A model generated the notes under the pieces. That model was not told the origin of the DNA. It made no database searches and was given only the letters and a program-made list of their open reading frames with translations. Below are positions 4,014 to 40,000 of a stretch of DNA of 40,000 nt, one piece after another. Location of the stretch: the NCBI RefSeq assembly GCF_009937765.1, contig NZ_CP047089.1:516272-556271 (forward strand), read 5' to 3'. Position numbers and translations under genes: made by a program. The stretch comes from Bacillus pumilus. Lineage in GTDB: Bacteria; Bacillota; Bacilli; Bacillales; Bacillaceae. Numbering within the stretch: position 1 is the stretch's first letter; each line of letters opens with the position of its first letter.

Positions 4014-4046
4014 TTCGTCCCTAATTCGTCCCCAATCCGTCCCCAT
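4014..4046. repeat. Three tandem copies of an 11-bp unit (TTCGTCCCTAA / TTCGTCCCCAA / TCCGTCCCCAT)
   Basis: Read directly from the sequence. It lies between the yugO stop and the terminator hairpin. Confidence 0.8.
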
Positions 4047-4496: not shown

Positions 4497-6155
<1,659 letters not shown>

Positions 6156-6374: not shown

Positions 6375-6523
6375 AAATGAAGTTAAGTCATCAAAAGTGT
6401 AAACATGTGGTCTGCATACTATATGTAAGTGAATTGGAAAAGTGTTTATTTATAAATTTGAGTTATTACCACTTGGAGATTCGGTAAAATATTAAAGATT
6501 AATTCCCTCTAATCCTTGTGGGA

Positions 6524-31809: not shown

Positions 31810-31837
31810 GAGGGTGTTGTCAGCACCCTCTTTTTTT
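31810..31837 (+). terminator. Hairpin GAGGGTG-N7-CACCCTC with a T-run only in the plus-strand orientation, overlapping the MTase stop codon
   Basis: Stems lie at 31810-31816 and 31824-31830, with T7 at 31831-31837. In the minus-strand sense there is no U-run after the stem. Confidence 0.45.
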
Positions 31838-32864
31838 ATTTAAACCATTGCAAATGTATCTGTTCTGCGATCCGTTTCATCATCACTGGCGGTACGCTCA
31901 TCCCGCAGACATACTGCACTGAAGCGTCCATAAAGTCATAATCCAGTGGGAAAGATTGCATCAGGATAATATCCCTTTCAGAGATATAATAAGGCTCATC
32001 ATATCTAATAAAGACAGAACCGCTTGCTAGTGTTGGCGGAACTAAACTGTTTTTAACTAATACTGTATTAAAATTCCGCTCTTTACCTTCTGTTCGTTTA
32101 GTGATGTCTCCAATGTTGCCATCGGACGGACGCCGCTTAATCCATCTTTTATATGTTTTACTTGATTCATTTAGCCTTGATCCATGTCCACTTCTAAACT
32201 CTCCATATGTGACCGGTGGTTCATTGAAAGCCAATTTCAACGGTGGCAGATTCAGGTCCTTTCTACGGCCAATAAAAAAGACCCGCTCTCTTCTTTGCGG
32301 GACTCCCATTGTGGCCGCGTTCAGCAAGAACAGCTGAACTTCATACCCGATTTCTTTTGCTCGCTCAATGACAAGTTTCACATACCCCTTTGCTTTTCCT
32401 TTGATCATGCCGCTTACGTTCTCGGCTACAAAGGTTTTGGGCTGCAAACGTTCTACAGCATCCAGGTAATGAAAGAACAGATCATCTAGTTTTTGGACAG
32501 CTTGTCCCTCTCTGAACGCTTTTTCTTTTCCCCAATCCTCTTCTCTTTTTCCGGCCGTTGAAAACACGCTGCATGGCGGCGATCCATCGAACACATCAAG
32601 ATTCTTTAGTTCTTCAGGAAGATCGGAGAGTGGGATCTGGTTAAACTCTCGAATGTCCATGAAATAAGGGTATTTCGGCTTGTGATTCTTTTTATAGATT
32701 TTCATCATTTGCGGATCGATCTCACAGTTTCCCAGCAATTCAAACCCTGCTAATTTGTAGCCCATTGAGGAGCCACCACCGCACGAGAATGTACTGAACA
32801 CTTTCAACCCATTGGAAGGGATGTTTTTAAGATCACTCAATTTCCATCTATAGTTCATGTTCAT
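31836..32864 (-). CDS. DNA (cytosine-5)-methyltransferase
   Basis: 342 aa with motif I FSTFSCGGGSSMG, motif IV GSPPCSVFS, motif VI FVAENV, motif VIII GVPQRRERVFFIG and motif X GMSVPP. Confidence 0.9.
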   Translation of the reverse strand: MNMNYRWKLSDLKNIPSNGLKVFSTFSCGGGSSMGYKLAGFELLGNCEIDPQMMKIYKKNHKPKYPYFMDIREFNQIPLSDLPEELKNLDVFDGSPPCSVFSTAGKREEDWGKEKAFREGQAVQKLDDLFFHYLDAVERLQPKTFVAENVSGMIKGKAKGYVKLVIERAKEIGYEVQLFLLNAATMGVPQRRERVFFIGRRKDLNLPPLKLAFNEPPVTYGEFRSGHGSRLNESSKTYKRWIKRRPSDGNIGDITKRTEGKERNFNTVLVKNSLVPPTLASGSVFIRYDEPYYISERDIILMQSFPLDYDFMDASVQYVCGMSVPPVMMKRIAEQIHLQWFK

Positions 32865-32872
32865 GCTGCCAC

Positions 32873-33391
32873 CTACTCATTAAAAGAGAATCCGCACTTA
32901 GGACATGTATGCTCAAATTGGTCATCTCCATATTCATCAAGATCGATCTCATGACTCTCAGATACTGCTCCACCTTGACCTGTATGTTCCAAATCATTCA
33001 GAACATCCTCTAATTCTGCGTCACTGAATCCAGTTAGGCTTAGATCATATCCAGATCCCTCTAAATCCTTCAGCAGTTCAGTAAGTTTATACTCATCCCA
33101 TTCACCGTCTATCTTATTCAATGCGATATTCAGTGCTTTTTCATCTTGTTCATTAAGCGATACAACTGATACAGGAATATCATTTGGATTTTCCTCCATC
33201 AATACTTTGAAACGTTGGTGACCTCCTACAAGGTGACCTGTCCGTTCATTCCATACTAAGGGATCAATGTATCCAAATTTTTTTATTGAGTTTTTCAGAG
33301 AGTCGTATTCTGGATCTCCTGGCTGCAGATCGATGCGGGGGTTATATGGTGATGGGTTAATTTTATGTACGGGAATTGTTTTGATATTCAT
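32873..33391 (-). CDS. ParB N-terminal (ParB/Srx-like nuclease) domain protein with a C-terminal zinc-ribbon motif
   Basis: 172 aa with IPVHKINPSPYNPR...LVGGHQRFKVL (ParB-like box) and a C-terminal CPKCGFSF. Confidence 0.75.
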   Translation of the reverse strand: MNIKTIPVHKINPSPYNPRIDLQPGDPEYDSLKNSIKKFGYIDPLVWNERTGHLVGGHQRFKVLMEENPNDIPVSVVSLNEQDEKALNIALNKIDGEWDEYKLTELLKDLEGSGYDLSLTGFSDAELEDVLNDLEHTGQGGAVSESHEIDLDEYGDDQFEHTCPKCGFSFNE

Positions 33392-33408
33392 CGCTGTTTC
33401 CTCCTACT

Positions 33409-33441
33409 AAAAACAAATGATGCCGCCCAGGAGGCGGCATC
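33409..33441 (-). terminator. Rho-independent terminator after the 114-aa cargo gene
   Basis: GATGCCGCC (33419-33427) pairs with GGCGGCATC (33433-33441), followed on the minus strand by ATTTGTTTTT. Confidence 0.75.
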
Positions 33442-33447
33442 AGCTGC

Positions 33448-33792
33448 TTACTTGATGTAAAATTCGTTTGTGTAGAATGTACCGACTGTTGCAACATGAT
33501 TGCCCTTTTTGTCGTAACGTTCCACATCAACTTTAAAGCGATAAGTGCCTTTTTTGTTACCTAGTGATTCCTTAATATCGAATTCATCGTACTGTTTCTC
33601 TGCTGGGTTCAGCGGGTTAGGTGAATTCGTTTTAATCGTAACCCATTTCCCCGCAACTTTTCGTTGAGGAATAAGGTTTGGCCCACAAAGGTAATCATTG
33701 TGATTCTGAACCGCAACAACCACAACCTTGTCCTTTCCTAAAATGTGATTCGCTTTTTTTGGATTAGCAGATACACCAAATTTTGATGCCAT
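33448..33792 (-). CDS. Hypothetical 114-aa protein (cargo), no family recognised
   Basis: The ORF is 33448..33801. I place the start at the third ATG (33792), 9 nt after AAGGGAG. The gene has its own terminator. Confidence 0.55.
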   Translation of the reverse strand: MASKFGVSANPKKANHILGKDKVVVVAVQNHNDYLCGPNLIPQRKVAGKWVTIKTNSPNPLNPAEKQYDEFDIKESLGNKKGTYRFKVDVERYDKKGNHVATVGTFYTNEFYIK

Positions 33793-33882
33793 GCTCATCA
33801 TCTCCCTTTTTATATTTTTGCGCTCCTATCCCTCACCAAAGCACGTGCAGCCATACACCCAAAAAGATGACTATTCCCATAA

Positions 33883-33903
33883 CAAAAACGCCCCAGAGGG
33901 ACG
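33883..33903 (-). terminator. Rho-independent terminator after the CotD-like gene
   Basis: On the minus strand CGUCCC-UCU-GGGGCG is followed by UUUUUGUU. Confidence 0.6.
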
Positions 33904-33928
33904 CTCAATATAAAAGTAAGATTCAATT

Positions 33929-34219
33929 TTATCTATTCACACGACGACAACAAGGATTTTTCAAGTCACTTCCACAATCGTACTCTTCAACACAGCACTC
34001 ATTCTCATACGATTCTGTCACTGGATAAAAATTCTCAATTTTTTTGATGTGTTTATTCACATTTGTAATATGAGTTGGATGAATTCGTCTGATTGTATTC
34101 TCACTAGTTGTTTTTTTGACGATATGACGTGTTGGTGAAACAATTGTTTCGTCCTTACAATTACAATGCTTTCTCCTACGAGAACCAAAGAAAAAATCGT
34201 CCATTCTGTTGCGGCTCAT
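33929..34219 (-). CDS. CotD-family (inner spore coat protein D-like) small Cys-rich protein
   Basis: 96 aa. The core IHPTHITNVNKHI...NFYP matches the CotD signature (V/I)HPTH..NVN...H..P. The C-terminus is Cys-rich: ECCVEEYDCGSDLKNPCCRRVNR. Confidence 0.6.
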   Translation of the reverse strand: MSRNRMDDFFFGSRRRKHCNCKDETIVSPTRHIVKKTTSENTIRRIHPTHITNVNKHIKKIENFYPVTESYENECCVEEYDCGSDLKNPCCRRVNR

Positions 34220-34253
34220 ATCAACACCCTTTCAACAGTTTTGACTTTCATCA

Positions 34254-34280
34254 CAGCATATGAAAAAATAGTCAGATTGT
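34254..34280 (-). promoter_or_regulatory. Sigma-K-like promoter candidate (AC-16 nt-CATATGCTG) upstream of the CotD-like gene
   Basis: The minus strand reads ggACaatctgactattttttCATAtgcTG, against the consensus AC-16/17-CATAnnnTA (one mismatch). It lies about 35 nt upstream of the ATG. Confidence 0.3.
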
Positions 34281-34327
34281 CCTCCACAAGTATCATTAAT
34301 AATGGAAAATTCCACTTATTAACCATG

Positions 34328-34507
34328 TTATTTTCTTCGGACCCGGCCGCCTTGTCGTTGATACGTTTCGCGTCTCGTTCCCATGATTTCTTCCCAATCT
34401 CGTGTCGTTATTGGATCAGCATCGTTCTCCTTCTTTCTATTAGAACCAGGAGCAATGCTTTTAAATTGCTTTAATGTCTCTTTAGAAACAGAATCCCTGA
34501 TCTTCAT
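34328..34507 (-). CDS. Hypothetical basic 59-aa protein (cargo)
   Basis: The ORF is 34328..34537. I place the start at ATG 34507, 8 nt after AAGGAG. Translation is MKIRDSVSKETLKQFKSIAPGSNRKKENDADPITTRDWEEIMGTRRETYQRQGGRVRRK. No family recognised. Confidence 0.5.
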   Translation of the reverse strand: MKIRDSVSKETLKQFKSIAPGSNRKKENDADPITTRDWEEIMGTRRETYQRQGGRVRRK

Positions 34508-34762
34508 TTCACTCGCTCCTTGCCGAATAAGCACCACCTTACGCTATTCGCTTAAATAGATTTTGATTTTGTAATGATGACTACACTCCGAGAGGATGCC
34601 AAGTACAGTCAATCATCAATTAAAATGAAAAACTGTCCTCGATACGGCCGCCGCAGACCAGCTGCTATCCAGGCTCAGAATGTCCCTCTCGTATGGCCAC
34701 ATTCCTCAACACCTTTGTTCCGTATCCAGATACGCCATTGATAAGGGAAAGACGCGTCTCCC

Positions 34763-34818
34763 AATAAAAAAGCGGACACCAATCAAGGCACTTAAAGTGC
34801 TCAATGATCAGCGTCCGC
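34763..34818 (-). terminator. Long branched hairpin plus U6 (minus strand) inside the ORF-poor spacer
   Basis: GCGGACAC (34772-34779) pairs with GCGTCCGC (34811-34818) as the outer stem, with a GCACT/AGTGC apical stem. A6 at 34766-34771 gives a U-run in the minus-strand sense. Confidence 0.5.
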
Positions 34819-34887
34819 AGGTTCTTCCTTCTGGACAAAATATTCACGTTCATTTGCTTGTCTCTATCATACGATGATCCGCTCAGG

Positions 34888-34950
34888 AAAAAAGGTCCCC
34901 TTTTTATCCCCCTTTTTGTCGGCTTTTCCTCGGTTTTTTGTCGGCTTTTT
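34888..34950. repeat. Phased A/T-tracts (predicted intrinsically curved DNA), including a 2x direct repeat TGTCGGCTTTTYCTCGG
   Basis: T-tracts start at 34901, 34913, 34924, 34934 and 34946 (spacing 10-12 bp), plus A6 at 34888-34893. Confidence 0.7.
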
Positions 34951-34963
34951 CTCGGCAATGCAA

Positions 34964-34993
34964 ATAAAAAAAGTGCCCATAAACATGGACACT
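34964..34993 (-). terminator. Rho-independent terminator after the immunity gene
   Basis: AGTGCCCAT (34972-34980) pairs with ATGGACACT (34985-34993), with one G-U pair, followed on the minus strand by U7. Confidence 0.75.
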
Positions 34994-34999
34994 TTAATT

Positions 35000-35488
35000 C
35001 TATAATTCCCAAAACGCTTCGCCTTCAGAATCAATATACTTCCGAAGGAAATTTTCAAAATCTACATCAAGGAGTCTATATTCTAAACCATCTTCAAATA
35101 GATAAAGGTTGGGATTTTCCTTATTTAGTATCAAGTAGCACCCTTCAAAAAGAGCGGCAATAGCTGTTCCATCAACCTGATCAAAAAAATCATTAGACAA
35201 CTCGGATTCGATTTCTTCTAAACTGAAAACGTGTAATCCTCCACCCACCTTTTGCCCAAAAACTATGTCTTCAAATATTCTTGCGCCATTATGTAGACAT
35301 AAAAACTCTTTGAGATCGTTAGGTAATGCATGATGTTTCTTTTCAAAACATTTTAGATTTTCTTTATCAGCTGGGGCATTGAAGGTACAGCACTTTTCAT
35401 AGACTTCGCCGTCTACCGAGTATTTGATGATGTTTTTATCATCTAATTGATTTTCAAGCTCTTCTAATATCTGCACGATCCTACTCAA
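35000..35488 (-). CDS. SMI1/KNR4 (SUKH-1) family immunity-type protein
   Basis: 162 aa, starting 12 nt after the toxin stop. It has the SUKH pattern ...HHALPNDLKEFLCLHNGARIFE... and an acidic C-terminal half. Confidence 0.7.
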   Translation of the reverse strand: MSRIVQILEELENQLDDKNIIKYSVDGEVYEKCCTFNAPADKENLKCFEKKHHALPNDLKEFLCLHNGARIFEDIVFGQKVGGGLHVFSLEEIESELSNDFFDQVDGTAIAALFEGCYLILNKENPNLYLFEDGLEYRLLDVDFENFLRKYIDSEGEAFWEL

Positions 35489-35499
35489 TCTTTCACCTT

Positions 35500-36468
35500 C
35501 TATCTATATCCTCTCCACCAAGGGGAAACCTCTTGTTGATGCAACGTTCTTGTGAGTACATATAAATTACCCATTTTATTATCTCCACCATATTCTAAAG
35601 GAATAACATGGTGTATGTCTGAGCCAGACCAATCCCATTTAGGATCGCCGTATTTACCAATATACCACCTGATATATTTATTACGGATATCCTTATCTCT
35701 CTTAACTCTATCTTCAGGCTTATACCATTTCATATTTGCTTTTGTTGGTGCTGGCAATGATTTACCACTATGACTATTATGAATTTGCGGATATTCATAA
35801 GCATTTTTATTAACTAGATATGTTTCTGTTGTACTTTGTTTAGTACCTGGGGCACTTCCGACCCAACCGGCTGTTAGTAAATCGGATTTGTACACAAATT
35901 TCGTTTTCACCATTTTATACGTTTTAGATGCTGTAGCACCAACTTTTATCTGAGAACCCGTAAATTCTTTTGTATAAGTTGAAATTGCGTTATATTTCCC
36001 CGCATAATCATCTCCTACAAATAGAGTGCTACCTACAATTACAATAACCGGCTTCGCTTTGCCAATAATACTACGAATTGTAGAACTATGAGTAATTGAC
36101 TTTTTCGATTGATCTAACTTAAACAATGTATCAATGACGATTGTATTAGCGACTTTGGTATTTGCGTCTGGAGTCTTTTTAGTACTCTTATTCTTGGTGG
36201 ATGGTTGAAGCACTACGGTGTCACCCTGTGGCATATTTCTTTGAGGTGGATCATGAGGTTGGTTTCTAAATTGTTGTCTTGCCTGGTCAATTATATCAGA
36301 TTTACTCTGTATTTCTTTTGCATGTCCATTTTCGTCAACTTCTAGTACATGTGTCTCTTTGTATGTTGTGATACCATCCTTTGATTGACTAGCTTCAGCA
36401 TCACTTGTCCATAACCATGCTGCCAACAGAAAAACCATAAAGAAAATCGAATAAGCAAATTTTTTCAT
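35500..36468 (-). CDS. Secreted protein with a C-terminal colicin-E9/E7-type H-N-H DNase motif (polymorphic-toxin-like)
   Basis: 322 aa. The Sec signal is MKKFAYSIFFMVFLLAAWLWTSDAEA|S. The C-terminus DIHHVIPLEYGGDNKMGNLYVLTRTLHQQ aligns with colicin E9 [32 protein letters not shown]: HH-xx-P, GG, N at +6, T at +5 and H at +9. I recognise no domain in the central region. Confidence 0.7.
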   Translation of the reverse strand: MKKFAYSIFFMVFLLAAWLWTSDAEASQSKDGITTYKETHVLEVDENGHAKEIQSKSDIIDQARQQFRNQPHDPPQRNMPQGDTVVLQPSTKNKSTKKTPDANTKVANTIVIDTLFKLDQSKKSITHSSTIRSIIGKAKPVIVIVGSTLFVGDDYAGKYNAISTYTKEFTGSQIKVGATASKTYKMVKTKFVYKSDLLTAGWVGSAPGTKQSTTETYLVNKNAYEYPQIHNSHSGKSLPAPTKANMKWYKPEDRVKRDKDIRNKYIRWYIGKYGDPKWDWSGSDIHHVIPLEYGGDNKMGNLYVLTRTLHQQEVSPWWRGYR

Positions 36469-36557: not shown

Positions 36558-36590
36558 AAAAAACAGCACTCATATGATTCCGAGTGCTGT
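36558..36590 (-). terminator. Rho-independent terminator overlapping the ArpU stop codon
   Basis: ACAGCACTC (36563-36571) pairs with GAGTGCTGT (36582-36590), followed on the minus strand by TTTTTTG. Confidence 0.7.
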
Positions 36591-36953
36591 TGAAAGATTA
36601 AACGTCGCTTGCTTCTTCAATTTGTAATACCGGTCTTTCTTCAGACCCAGTTCTTCACACACCTCCAAATCCTTCACCACACGCGGTGTCAGGTATTTCA
36701 TCCGGATGATGTCTTGCTCAATTTCATCCAGGCTGTTTTCTAGCGCTCTTTCTATTTGCCGGACCTTCAGTTCATTTAAAACTTCCTGGTTCCTGAGAGA
36801 AGGAAAAAGCCCTGTTGCACCGTTTGCCTCCTGTTCCTTTCTGTTTTCTTCAAGAACCTTCAGTGCCCTATAGACCTTCAGCTCCTTGATCAGAGCATTC
36901 CGAACGTGTTTCTCATCGATCTCTGGCAGTAAGGATAATTGTTCAGCTCCCAT
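36570..36953 (-). CDS. ArpU-family phage late transcriptional regulator (sigma region-4-like C-terminus)
   Basis: 127 aa. The call rests on its position between the early and packaging genes and on the C-terminal HTH-like IIRMKYLTPRVVKDLEVCEELGLKKDRYYKLKKQATFNLSTALG. Confidence 0.6.
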   Translation of the reverse strand: MGAEQLSLLPEIDEKHVRNALIKELKVYRALKVLEENRKEQEANGATGLFPSLRNQEVLNELKVRQIERALENSLDEIEQDIIRMKYLTPRVVKDLEVCEELGLKKDRYYKLKKQATFNLSTALGII

Positions 36954-37791: not shown

Positions 37792-38778
37792 TTATAGGTG
37801 ATGCAACAGTTCAATTTGCACGCCGTTTAAGCGTTTGTTTGCAATCTTTATATATTCAGGATTCAATTCAATTCCGATAAAATTTCTACTATGCTTTATT
37901 GCCGCTATACCTGTTGTTCCTGATCCCATGAATGGATCCAATACAATGCCATCTACGGGGCAGCCAGCTAATACACACGGCTCTATCAGCTCCACTGGAT
38001 ATGTTGCAAAGTGAGCGTCTTTGGTTGGCTTGGTTGCAACGGTCCAGACTGAACGCTTATTCCGCTTATTTCTGATAGCTCTAAAAGACAGATCACCATA
38101 CTTTCCTTTGAATGAGCCGCGGGGCTTGTCCTCTCTCCGCCCTAGTTGTTCCAATCCGAATGCGCCTCGTGATCCTCTTGGTGGATCCGGAAACAGTTTG
38201 TAAGCAGCTTCTTCTTTAATTGCTTCATGATCGTAATAATACTTTTGTGATTTTGAGAGAAGAAAAATATATTCGTGTGAGGATGTCGGTCTATCCCTCA
38301 CACTCTCCGGCATGGCATTTGGTTTGTTCCAAACAATGTCTTTTCTCAGGTACCAGCCATCTTCTTGGAGAGCGAAAGCAACGCGCCACGGCAAGCCTAT
38401 TAAATCTTTTGATTTTAATCCGGTTACTTTGTTTGAAAGATTTATAACACCGCTTCTTTGACCAACAGACTGTTTATGTTCAATACCTGGATGCGCTTGG
38501 CCGTTCGCAATTCTTCCACGACCGCTTCCAGCATAAGCGTCTCCTAGATTCAGCCAGACAGTGCCATCATCCTTTAAAACTCTCTTAATCTCTCTGAATA
38601 AAGAAACGATTTTTTGAATGTATTCTTGAACGGTTTCTTCTAAACCGATTTGCTCAGTCATTCCGTAATCTCTTAACCCCCAATAAGGCGGGCTAGTGAT
38701 CACGGTTTGAATTGTATCCGGCGGCAGCGACTGAACAACCTTTATGCAATCGCCTTGAATGATTTGATTCAGGTCCAT
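37792..38778 (-). CDS. DNA methyltransferase, N4/N6 (beta-class, SPPY) family
   Basis: 328 aa with motif IV TSPPYWGLRDYG near the N-terminus and the AdoMet motif VLDPFMGSGTTGIAA near the C-terminus. Confidence 0.85.
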   Translation of the reverse strand: MDLNQIIQGDCIKVVQSLPPDTIQTVITSPPYWGLRDYGMTEQIGLEETVQEYIQKIVSLFREIKRVLKDDGTVWLNLGDAYAGSGRGRIANGQAHPGIEHKQSVGQRSGVINLSNKVTGLKSKDLIGLPWRVAFALQEDGWYLRKDIVWNKPNAMPESVRDRPTSSHEYIFLLSKSQKYYYDHEAIKEEAAYKLFPDPPRGSRGAFGLEQLGRREDKPRGSFKGKYGDLSFRAIRNKRNKRSVWTVATKPTKDAHFATYPVELIEPCVLAGCPVDGIVLDPFMGSGTTGIAAIKHSRNFIGIELNPEYIKIANKRLNGVQIELLHHL

Positions 38779-38798: not shown

Positions 38799-40000
38799 TT
38801 AGTTTGCTTTGCTATAATATTTGTTCATGTGTACAGGTACACATAGTTCAGGTAAATTCGCTCTCACCAACTGCTCCGCAAATTGCGGTGGAACACTATT
38901 CCCCACCCTGCGTATTTGGTCCGATTTATTACCGATGTTAAATGTATATCCAGGCGGGAATCCCTGCCCTGCAAATAGTTCGTTCGGTTGCAACATACGT
39001 AATCCGATGTCAGCAATTCTCTGACCATTTGTGCAAACAGTTGTTAATGCAAATCGGTCTTTGGTTGTAATGGTATGCAATGGCTCATCTAATCGTTGGC
39101 CTACTCCTTGGCCGTAATACTTAGTCAAATAGGCAACGGTGACTAGTCCGAATCTATTGCCGCCAGCTGTGATTGTGTGTAATGGACGATCAAGCGAAAG
39201 ACCTCTTACATCCTTTTCTGATTGCTCTGTGTAATAGCTAATCAAGAAAGCGGCTTTGCTCTTATCCGGCACCATTACAGGACTTGGATTATTTACAATG
39301 AATTTCTCAATACCTCTCTCAATTCTTTTCAACGTATTTTCGACTAACGGCCGTTTCCTGCTGAATATACTAGGGACCCCTATGGACCAATCTATAATTT
39401 CGTAAGAAGATCGCCACGGCTTGAGCTTTCCCGTTTGAACAAGAAGGCTTTTAGGATCTGCATGTGTTGGCTTCGGCCATACGATTTCTTTTCCATCACA
39501 CCTAGCAACCATGAAAAACCTCTTTCGTATGGTTGGCGCTCCATAGTCACAAGCCGTTAACTCTCTGAACTGCACTTCATATCCAAGTGATTCCAGCGTT
39601 TTGACGAATGATTGAAATGTCTGTCCCTTTTGTTCCTTGATCGGTTTACCTTCTTTAGAGATAGGCCCCCAATCTTTGAATTCCTCAACGTTCTCGAGCA
39701 TGATGACGCGTGGCTTAACTGCTATCGCCCATCTGACAGCAATCCACGCAAGCCCTCTGATACCCTGTTTTACAGGCTTGCCGCCTTTTGCCTTTGAATG
39801 GTGTGTACAGTCAGGAGAAAACCATGCTAGACCGACTTTCCGCCCCTTAACAGCTTCTTTCGGATCAACATTCCACACAGATTCACAATAATGCTCCGTG
39901 TCAGGATGATTTACCTCATGCATTGCAATGGCAGCAGGATCATGATTGATGGCTATATCAACTGATAACCCTGTCGCAAGCTCGATTCCTGTACTCGCTC
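38799..40000 (-). CDS. DNA (cytosine-5)-methyltransferase; the N-terminus lies beyond the right edge
   Basis: The frame stays open upstream of the ORF-track Met: ...ASTGIELATGLSVDIAINHDPAAIAMHEVNHP is the tail of motif I (GGGGASTG). FSPDCTHHSKAKGG (motif IV variant), MLENVEEF (VI) and GNSVPP (X) are also present. Confidence 0.85.
   Translation of the reverse strand, partial: ASTGIELATGLSVDIAINHDPAAIAMHEVNHPDTEHYCESVWNVDPKEAVKGRKVGLAWFSPDCTHHSKAKGGKPVKQGIRGLAWIAVRWAIAVKPRVIMLENVEEFKDWGPISKEGKPIKEQKGQTFQSFVKTLESLGYEVQFRELTACDYGAPTIRKRFFMVARCDGKEIVWPKPTHADPKSLLVQTGKLKPWRSSYEIIDWSIGVPSIFSRKRPLVENTLKRIERGIEKFIVNNPSPVMVPDKSKAAFLISYYTEQSEKDVRGLSLDRPLHTITAGGNRFGLVTVAYLTKYYGQGVGQRLDEPLHTITTKDRFALTTVCTNGQRIADIGLRMLQPNELFAGQGFPPGYTFNIGNKSDQIRRVGNSVPPQFAEQLVRANLPELCVPVHMNKYYSKAN

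Follow-up and report, generated by a model that had tools for sequence, protein, structure and literature searches.

A prophage-borne CotD-family gene with a predicted mother-cell promoter in the Bacillus pumilus group

A prophage in a Bacillus pumilus-group genome carries a working gene of the CotD (PF11122) family, which lies at 33929–34219 on the minus strand of the 40,000-nt stretch of DNA analyzed here (the window). Taken together, its membership of the CotD family, its place among the cargo of a prophage and its conserved sporulation-type promoter indicate that the phage probably adds a protein to the spore coat. We put the probability of the whole chain, from late mother-cell transcription in a sporulating lysogen to deposition of the protein in the coat, at about 0.58; within this chain we infer the sigma factor used, the timing of expression, the localization to the coat and the spore phenotype. 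The gene joins kinds that are already known, namely phage morons, phage-borne sporulation genes and the CotD family, and does not represent a new kind of system.

The open reading frame starts with ATG and encodes a protein of 96 amino acids with seven cysteines and a pI of about 9. The initial annotation had assigned it to the CotD family, and the profile check bears this out: the protein matches PF11122 (Spore-coat_CotD) with an E-value of 5.4e-20 and 72.1 bits against a cut-off of 22, with residues 24–88 aligned to model positions 1–65 of 90, and it scores 71.3 bits in the genome-wide profile search. The CotD core motifs and the Cys-rich tail described earlier are present, as IHPTHITNVNKH...FYP and a C-terminal NPCCRRVNR; pairwise alignment recovers the family signature of HPTH..NV, F/Y-Y/F-P and a Cys-containing C-terminus, and the invariant columns of the alignment are P48, T49, H50, Y65, P66, D81, C82, G83 and C91. 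No family in NCBIfam or in PHROGs matches the protein. An AlphaFold2 model built from a 20-sequence alignment has a pLDDT of 42.5 and no confident fold, and a profile search of the PDB returned insignificant matches only and no solved relative; the fold thus argues neither way.

The signals for expression flank the gene closely. A ribosome-binding site (GAAAGGGTG / AAAGGGTG) at 34225–34233 on the minus strand lies 5–6 nt 5' of the ATG and is conserved in the alignment of upstream regions. The terminator that the gene had been credited with was located by a terminator scan at 33886–33906 on the same strand, as a hairpin with a 9-bp stem, a 3-nt loop and a T-run, with a folding energy of -14.8 kcal/mol (z = -2.5).

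The host genome (3.77 Mb) contains four PF11122 loci by profile search: the window gene; a canonical His-rich CotD at G000:C1 ~2,357,495 (~2.357 Mb); a copy beside glnA at ~1.680 Mb, which encodes 94 amino acids and is ~92% identical to the window protein; and a copy linked to araE at G000:C1 ~3,214,772 (~3.215 Mb), which encodes 95 amino acids and is ~65% identical to it. The window protein and the canonical CotD belong to the same Pfam family and have in common (I/V)HPTH..NV, (F/Y)(Y/F)P and a C-terminal CG..PCC, with 32% identity end to end that includes DCG...PCC (BLASTP). In composition, however, they differ markedly. Histidine accounts for 17 of the 78 residues of the canonical protein and for only five residues of the window protein, while lysine and arginine together number 19 in the window protein and two in the canonical one; the window protein is accordingly basic (pI ~9.1), whereas the canonical CotD is nearly neutral (7.3). 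The window protein also has an N-terminal MSRNRMDDFFFGSRRR segment that the canonical protein lacks, and its gene lies in a prophage, with the canonical cotD elsewhere in the genome. We considered whether the window protein could be the CotD orthologue and rejected this, since it is His-poor and basic, falls in a separate clade on a long branch and sits at another locus.

On this sequence evidence the window protein belongs to a distinct basic, Asn/Thr/Lys-rich paralogous subfamily, for which a coat role is predicted. This subfamily has relatives in B. halotolerans, B. mojavensis, Priestia, Neobacillus and Rossellomorea, annotated there as 'CotD family spore coat protein'. The CotD family as a whole is small, with 47 representatives at 50% clustering, and its members are otherwise confined to spore formers. 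The araE-linked paralogue carries the same annotation as these relatives; it is a member of the same subfamily at 65–72% identity, is similar in length and motifs, and has a sigma-K-type promoter. It is flanked by a GNAT gene and an araE-like transporter gene, and its orthologues adjoin araE in nearly all of the pumilus-group genomes examined, so that its chromosomal position is fixed while the window copy is mobile and prophage-borne. The paralogue has four cysteines; the genome's two mobile-lineage copies have six to seven, and other copies of the mobile clade four to six. This sets apart a CotD-like subfamily, lumped with CotD in current annotation, whose chromosomal member beside araE is conserved.

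The location of the gene in a prophage, as first described, is upheld by phage genes on both sides, by a gene set that extends from integrase to amidase and by 15-bp att-like repeats. Within the window the prophage occupies 4021–40000 on the minus strand (PHROG and Pfam), a span that covers its att-side end, the genes for lysis, tail, head and packaging, and some of the early region. The element continues for ~16.7 kb past the window end, to a total of ~52.7 kb; its insertion site lies between yugN and a yugO-like K+ channel gene. The minus strand of the window reads as a phage genome from DNA methyltransferases and a late transcriptional activator (36570–36953) through to the amidase. Between the activator and the packaging genes lie a toxin/SUKH immunity pair (35000–36468), a small upstream ORF (34328–34537; phrog_20406, E 4e-18) with a likely start at ATG 34507 that gives a 59-residue product (p59), the CotD-like gene, and a small downstream ORF (33448–33801; phrog_17102, E 2.6e-54) that encodes the 117-residue p117 and is followed by a terminator at 33442–33418 in the terminator scan, all on the minus strand. 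These are succeeded by a ParB-N-domain gene, a C5 methyltransferase gene, TerS, TerL, portal, head genes, tail sheath, a 1654-residue tape measure, baseplate genes and the amidase; the tail is contractile. Past the window end are genes for DnaB, an SbcC-like ATPase, a CI-like repressor, an ImmA-type peptidase and a tyrosine integrase, beyond which the host chromosome resumes with yugN and pgi.

The sequence TAATTCGTCCCCAAT occurs as a direct repeat of 15 bp, at window 4021–4035 and at G000:C1 ~572,964–572,978 (L045 16693–16707), where the right copy overlaps the integrase stop codon. About 5e-4 such matches would be expected by chance between the two junction stretches, and the repeats are likely to be the attL/attR cores. 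From its gene content, the element looks like an apparently complete temperate prophage. The label 'PBSX/skin-like', which the initial annotation had used, is therefore inexact: the tail, packaging and virion genes do resemble the PBSX type, but PBSX and skin are of the defective type, whereas this prophage has an integrase, a CI-like repressor, ImmA, DnaB, an SbcC-like ATPase and flanking repeats.

Two features of the prophage are recorded here as observations in their own right. It contains three DNA methyltransferase genes on the minus strand (31836–32864, 37792–38778 and 38799–39923; two C5 and one N4/N6), and no nuclease partner for them was seen. A stretch of 0.46 kb between the terminator of the SUKH gene and the p59 ORF (34538–34998) has no credible ORF; it is 89% conserved in the remnant beside glnA described below and is present in related prophages, and an Rfam scan of 33000–36000 returned nothing credible.

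The CotD-like gene lies between the late activator and the terminase, at the junction of the regulatory and packaging modules. Its distribution was checked, as had been proposed, and the gene occupies the same spot in two related prophages, with its chromosomal relative beside araE. In the prophages of Bacillus sp. 28A-2 and B. pumilus 36R the gene order matches that of the window prophage, as late activator, (toxin pair), p69, CotD-like gene, p117, ParB-like gene, methyltransferase and terminase. The copy in 28A-2 is intact and 84% identical. In the syntenic prophage of 36R (L012 ~10069) a deletion of one nucleotide (GGAC-AAAC) shifts the reading frame, which reflects either an error in a draft assembly or a real loss; another copy in 36R has lost both promoter elements. 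These decayed copies imply that the gene is dispensable and count against a mother-cell coat role.

A second copy in the same genome extends this picture. A block of 1.56 kb (window 33448–35008), which covers p117, the CotD-like gene, p59 and the spacer, is duplicated at 89% identity by blastn at G000:C1 ~1,679,516–1,681,022 (L006 9517–11023), where its neighbors are an integrase fragment, glnA and glnR; we take this setting to identify it as a prophage remnant. The remnant has a frameshifted p117 but retains intact the CotD-like gene together with its promoter and terminator, the latter with the same sequence as in the window.

In a maximum-likelihood tree the sequences fall into three groups. 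The window copy, the glnA remnant and the copies of 36R, 28A-2 and B. stratosphericus make up a mobile clade, the araE-linked chromosomal copies form a second, and the third is a subtilis-group clade that includes phage SPR. Among prophage copies dS is ~0.4–0.5, and dN/dS within the mobile clade is 0.12–0.21 (for example, dN 0.065 and dS 0.52). Between the mobile and chromosomal clades dS exceeds 2 and is saturated. We rejected a recent capture from the host's chromosomal paralogue on account of this distance and of the separate clade. The saturated dS together with the low dN/dS points to a long-standing phage-associated lineage under purifying selection.

Phage morons (PMC3594210) are add-on genes that bring a promoter and a terminator of their own. 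The CotD-like gene is of host type and lies inside a prophage between modules, with a predicted promoter and a supported terminator, and its GC content of 35.4% deviates from the 42.8% of the prophage. By its sequence it is a probable moron on a temperate prophage. It resembles known phage morons and phage-borne sporulation genes in layout and in its expected expression from the prophage, which here would fall within a developmental program of the host. It differs from them in that the cargo is a structural coat-type protein with a predicted mother-cell promoter.

The putative promoter consists of a -35 element, GGACAAT (34276–34282, minus strand), with the AC at 34280–34279, and a -10 element, CATATGCTG (34254–34262, minus strand), of the CATAnnnTA type with G as its last base, which ends 34 nt before the ATG. 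The AC and the -10 element are separated by 16 nt, and the sequence departs from the sigma-K consensus at one position, the final G. The initial annotation had described this same motif, and it stands; by sequence, the AC at -35, the -10, their spacing and their distance to the start codon are all those of a sigma-K promoter. This geometry agrees with that of mapped sigma-K promoters of B. thuringiensis, which have the form CAC-N16-CATATGTTA with start sites 10–150 bp before the start codon (PMC4750369). The -35 and -10 blocks of sigma-K promoters are reported to be 14–16 nt apart, and cotD is listed among the sigma-K and SpoIIID targets (PMC517825).

When 28 upstream regions are compared, drawn from the lineages of the prophage, the araE-linked chromosomal copies, the halotolerans type and SPR, conservation is limited to the -35, the -10 as CATAnnnT, a TGTAAG-like box and the ribosome-binding site. 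The -35 appears as GGACAA in the phage and subtilis types and as TCAC in the chromosomal pumilus type; the CATA and T of the -10 are invariant or nearly so; the TGTAAG-like box lies just downstream of the -10 in the compared lineages; and the spacer of 15–16 nt differs freely. In SPR and the chromosomal copies CATAnnnTA is matched perfectly. Upstream of this genome's canonical cotD stands AC-17-CATACATTG and then TGTAAG, with the same final G as the window copy, so that the two genes have in common the layout AC-N16/17-CATAnnnTG with a TGTAAG-like box. Two details count against the sigma-K reading: the final G of the window copy in place of the consensus A, and the spacer of the araE-linked paralogue (-10 CATACGATA), which is 15 nt and not 16–17 nt as in the consensus, compared with 16 nt for the window gene.

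A relaxed form of the motif, AC-N16/17-CATANNNT, occurs at 1.1e-4 per nt on the same strand in the genome and would be expected ~0.004 times in an upstream window of 40 nt. The ~52.7-kb prophage contains three coding-strand matches, and only the one at the CotD-like gene stands directly before a gene. We therefore rejected the idea that the motif is a general promoter of the phage, as it precedes no other prophage gene. The strict motif, correctly placed before an ORF, has 25 matches in the genome, among them gerE, cotE, spoVIF, yppG, gerPA/F and yqfQ; since these include known mother-cell genes, the B. subtilis consensus carries over to this genome. The conservation across lineages, the layout of the canonical cotD, and the specificity of the motif both in the genome and within the prophage raise it above chance. 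The promoter architecture is of the mother-cell type and, judged by these elements, most likely that of sigma-K.

cotD is a classic target of sigma-K and SpoIIID. The GGACAA at -35 resembles the SpoIIID box, whose consensus we take to be WWRRACAR-Y, and offers a lead in this direction. Inspection by eye of the region upstream of the CotD-like gene gave no convincing match to a GerE box.

The gene is not confined to the window prophage, since a homologue is present in phage SPR (Spbetavirus), the only carrier among 50,697 phage records searched. The SPR gene, spr_144, is phage-borne, belongs to the same subfamily at 60% identity, and like the window gene has a sigma-K-type motif upstream (TAGGAC-N16-CATATACTA) and a hairpin downstream. 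The two phages are of unrelated lineages, SPR being a 131-kb SPbeta-like phage and the window element a ~52.7-kb contractile-tailed prophage. Their genes also differ in setting, as spr_144 lies in the replication region and is transcribed against its neighbors, whereas the window gene is co-oriented with its own, and in product length (106 amino acids for spr_144 and 96 for the window protein). Copies in SPR-like prophages are found in B. subtilis and B. tequilensis. A search of IMG/VR with the single protein returned nothing, and a search with the alignment returned three contigs only, all SPR-like. In the literature we found no report of a phage-borne CotD or of a coat-type moron for CotD; a survey of Paenibacillus larvae prophages records an annotation of CotE only. 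Sporulation-type sigma factors occur in Bacillus phages (PMC9429907).

We propose the following mechanism for the CotD-like gene. In a sporulating lysogen, mother-cell RNA polymerase, most likely with sigma-K, would start transcription ~25–28 nt upstream of the ATG from GGAC-N16-CATATGCTG; SpoIIID and/or GerE may modulate the gene, as they do cotD, and transcription would stop at the terminator at 33906–33886. The small, Cys-rich, basic protein would be laid into the coat beside the products of the host's chromosomal paralogue and of CotD, and the phage would thereby alter the composition of the spore that carries it.

The promoter could also be read differently, with mother-cell expression from sigma-E, or from sigma-E and sigma-K together, and a product that is deposited early in the coat or on the forespore surface. 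The -10 consensus of sigma-E is CATACAnT. The chromosomal paralogues have CATACGAT, which agrees with it at seven of eight positions, and the strict motif also picked up cotE, a gene that has sigma-E-dependent promoters (PMC517825). No lineage, however, has an ATA-type -35 at the right distance, which makes this reading the less likely one; all have the AC that is the sigma-K determinant, and cotD is itself among the listed targets of sigma-K and SpoIIID (PMC517825). We regard a role for sigma-E as unlikely. On another reading the gene would serve the lytic cycle in a role unrelated to spores, transcribed by read-through from p59 or from a phage promoter, and its likeness to sigma-K promoters would be incidental. 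The gene is oriented as all neighboring phage genes are, the terminator scan found no terminator between the p59 ORF and the gene, so that phage-driven read-through in lytic growth is possible, a weak sigma-A-like site lies at 34602–34574, and the position of the gene is conserved in three related prophages. Yet the same -35 and -10 are kept by chromosomal paralogues that have no phage neighbors, and also by the copy in SPR, where the gene runs opposite to its neighbors; the motif stands before no other gene of the prophage; and apart from this the family is a spore-coat one, found in spore formers only. A purely lytic function is quite unlikely on this evidence.

It may also be that the gene is transcribed in sporulation but is passenger DNA, a captured coat gene that is redundant with the araE-linked paralogue and brings neither a change to the spore nor a benefit. 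The presence of both a chromosomal paralogue and a canonical cotD in the genome is consistent with redundancy, as are the decayed copies, one frameshifted and one without a promoter, and the rarity of the homologue, found in one of the 50,697 phage records. Against this stand the dN/dS of 0.12–0.21 across prophage copies at dS ~0.4–0.5, the dS of more than 2 to the chromosomal clade, which excludes a recent capture, and the survival of an intact gene in a remnant whose neighbor p117 has decayed. We consider the passenger explanation improbable, and mother-cell expression of a coat protein from a sigma-K-type promoter is the reading that we prefer.

Spores are the vehicle in which temperate Bacillus phages outlast bad times. 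The known links between phages and sporulation are mostly regulatory, such as sigma factors encoded by phages and the elements by which sigK, spsM or gerE is interrupted; sspC lies within SPbeta. A structural coat-type gene with a predicted mother-cell promoter, found in two unrelated phage lineages and under purifying selection, suggests that what the spore is made of may be a further target of phage investment. A broader proposal, which we advance only tentatively and consider more doubtful than probable, is that at least two unrelated temperate Bacillus phage lineages, the contractile-tailed B. pumilus-group prophage and the SPbeta-like phage SPR, carry sigma-K-driven coat genes and remodel the spore coats of their lysogens, with measurable changes in resistance, germination or surface and hence in the survival of the prophage in the spore. 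If true, this would amount to lysogenic conversion of the dormant stage. The B. pumilus group is known for spores of unusual resistance, for instance in spacecraft clean rooms, and strain-specific prophage cargo is a candidate source of differences in spore properties between strains.

The searches also brought up a number of minor features. The last gene of the prophage, beyond the amidase gene, is on the minus strand (4497–6146) and encodes a 549-residue protein with collagen triple-helix repeats and a CBM_5_12 domain. It could be a second cargo gene, for a collagen-like protein of the surface or of a spore appendage, or else encode a tail fibre that has been displaced. We considered and rejected a sigma-K promoter immediately in front of this gene, as the CATAGTATG found there has no AC at the right spacing and lies too near the ribosome-binding site. 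Elsewhere in the prophage the sigma-K motif has just one more intergenic match on the coding strand, ACTTTTCCAATTCACTTACATATAGTA at 6417–6443 (minus strand); ~60 nt downstream of it, between the amidase gene and the collagen-like gene, is a terminator-like hairpin, and motif and hairpin may mark a small sporulation-specific transcript. On the chromosome, divergent from the araE-linked paralogue, the strict sigma-K motif precedes an ORF of 70 amino acids with no Pfam match (G000:C1:3215250–3215462, plus strand), which may be a small unannotated sporulation gene.
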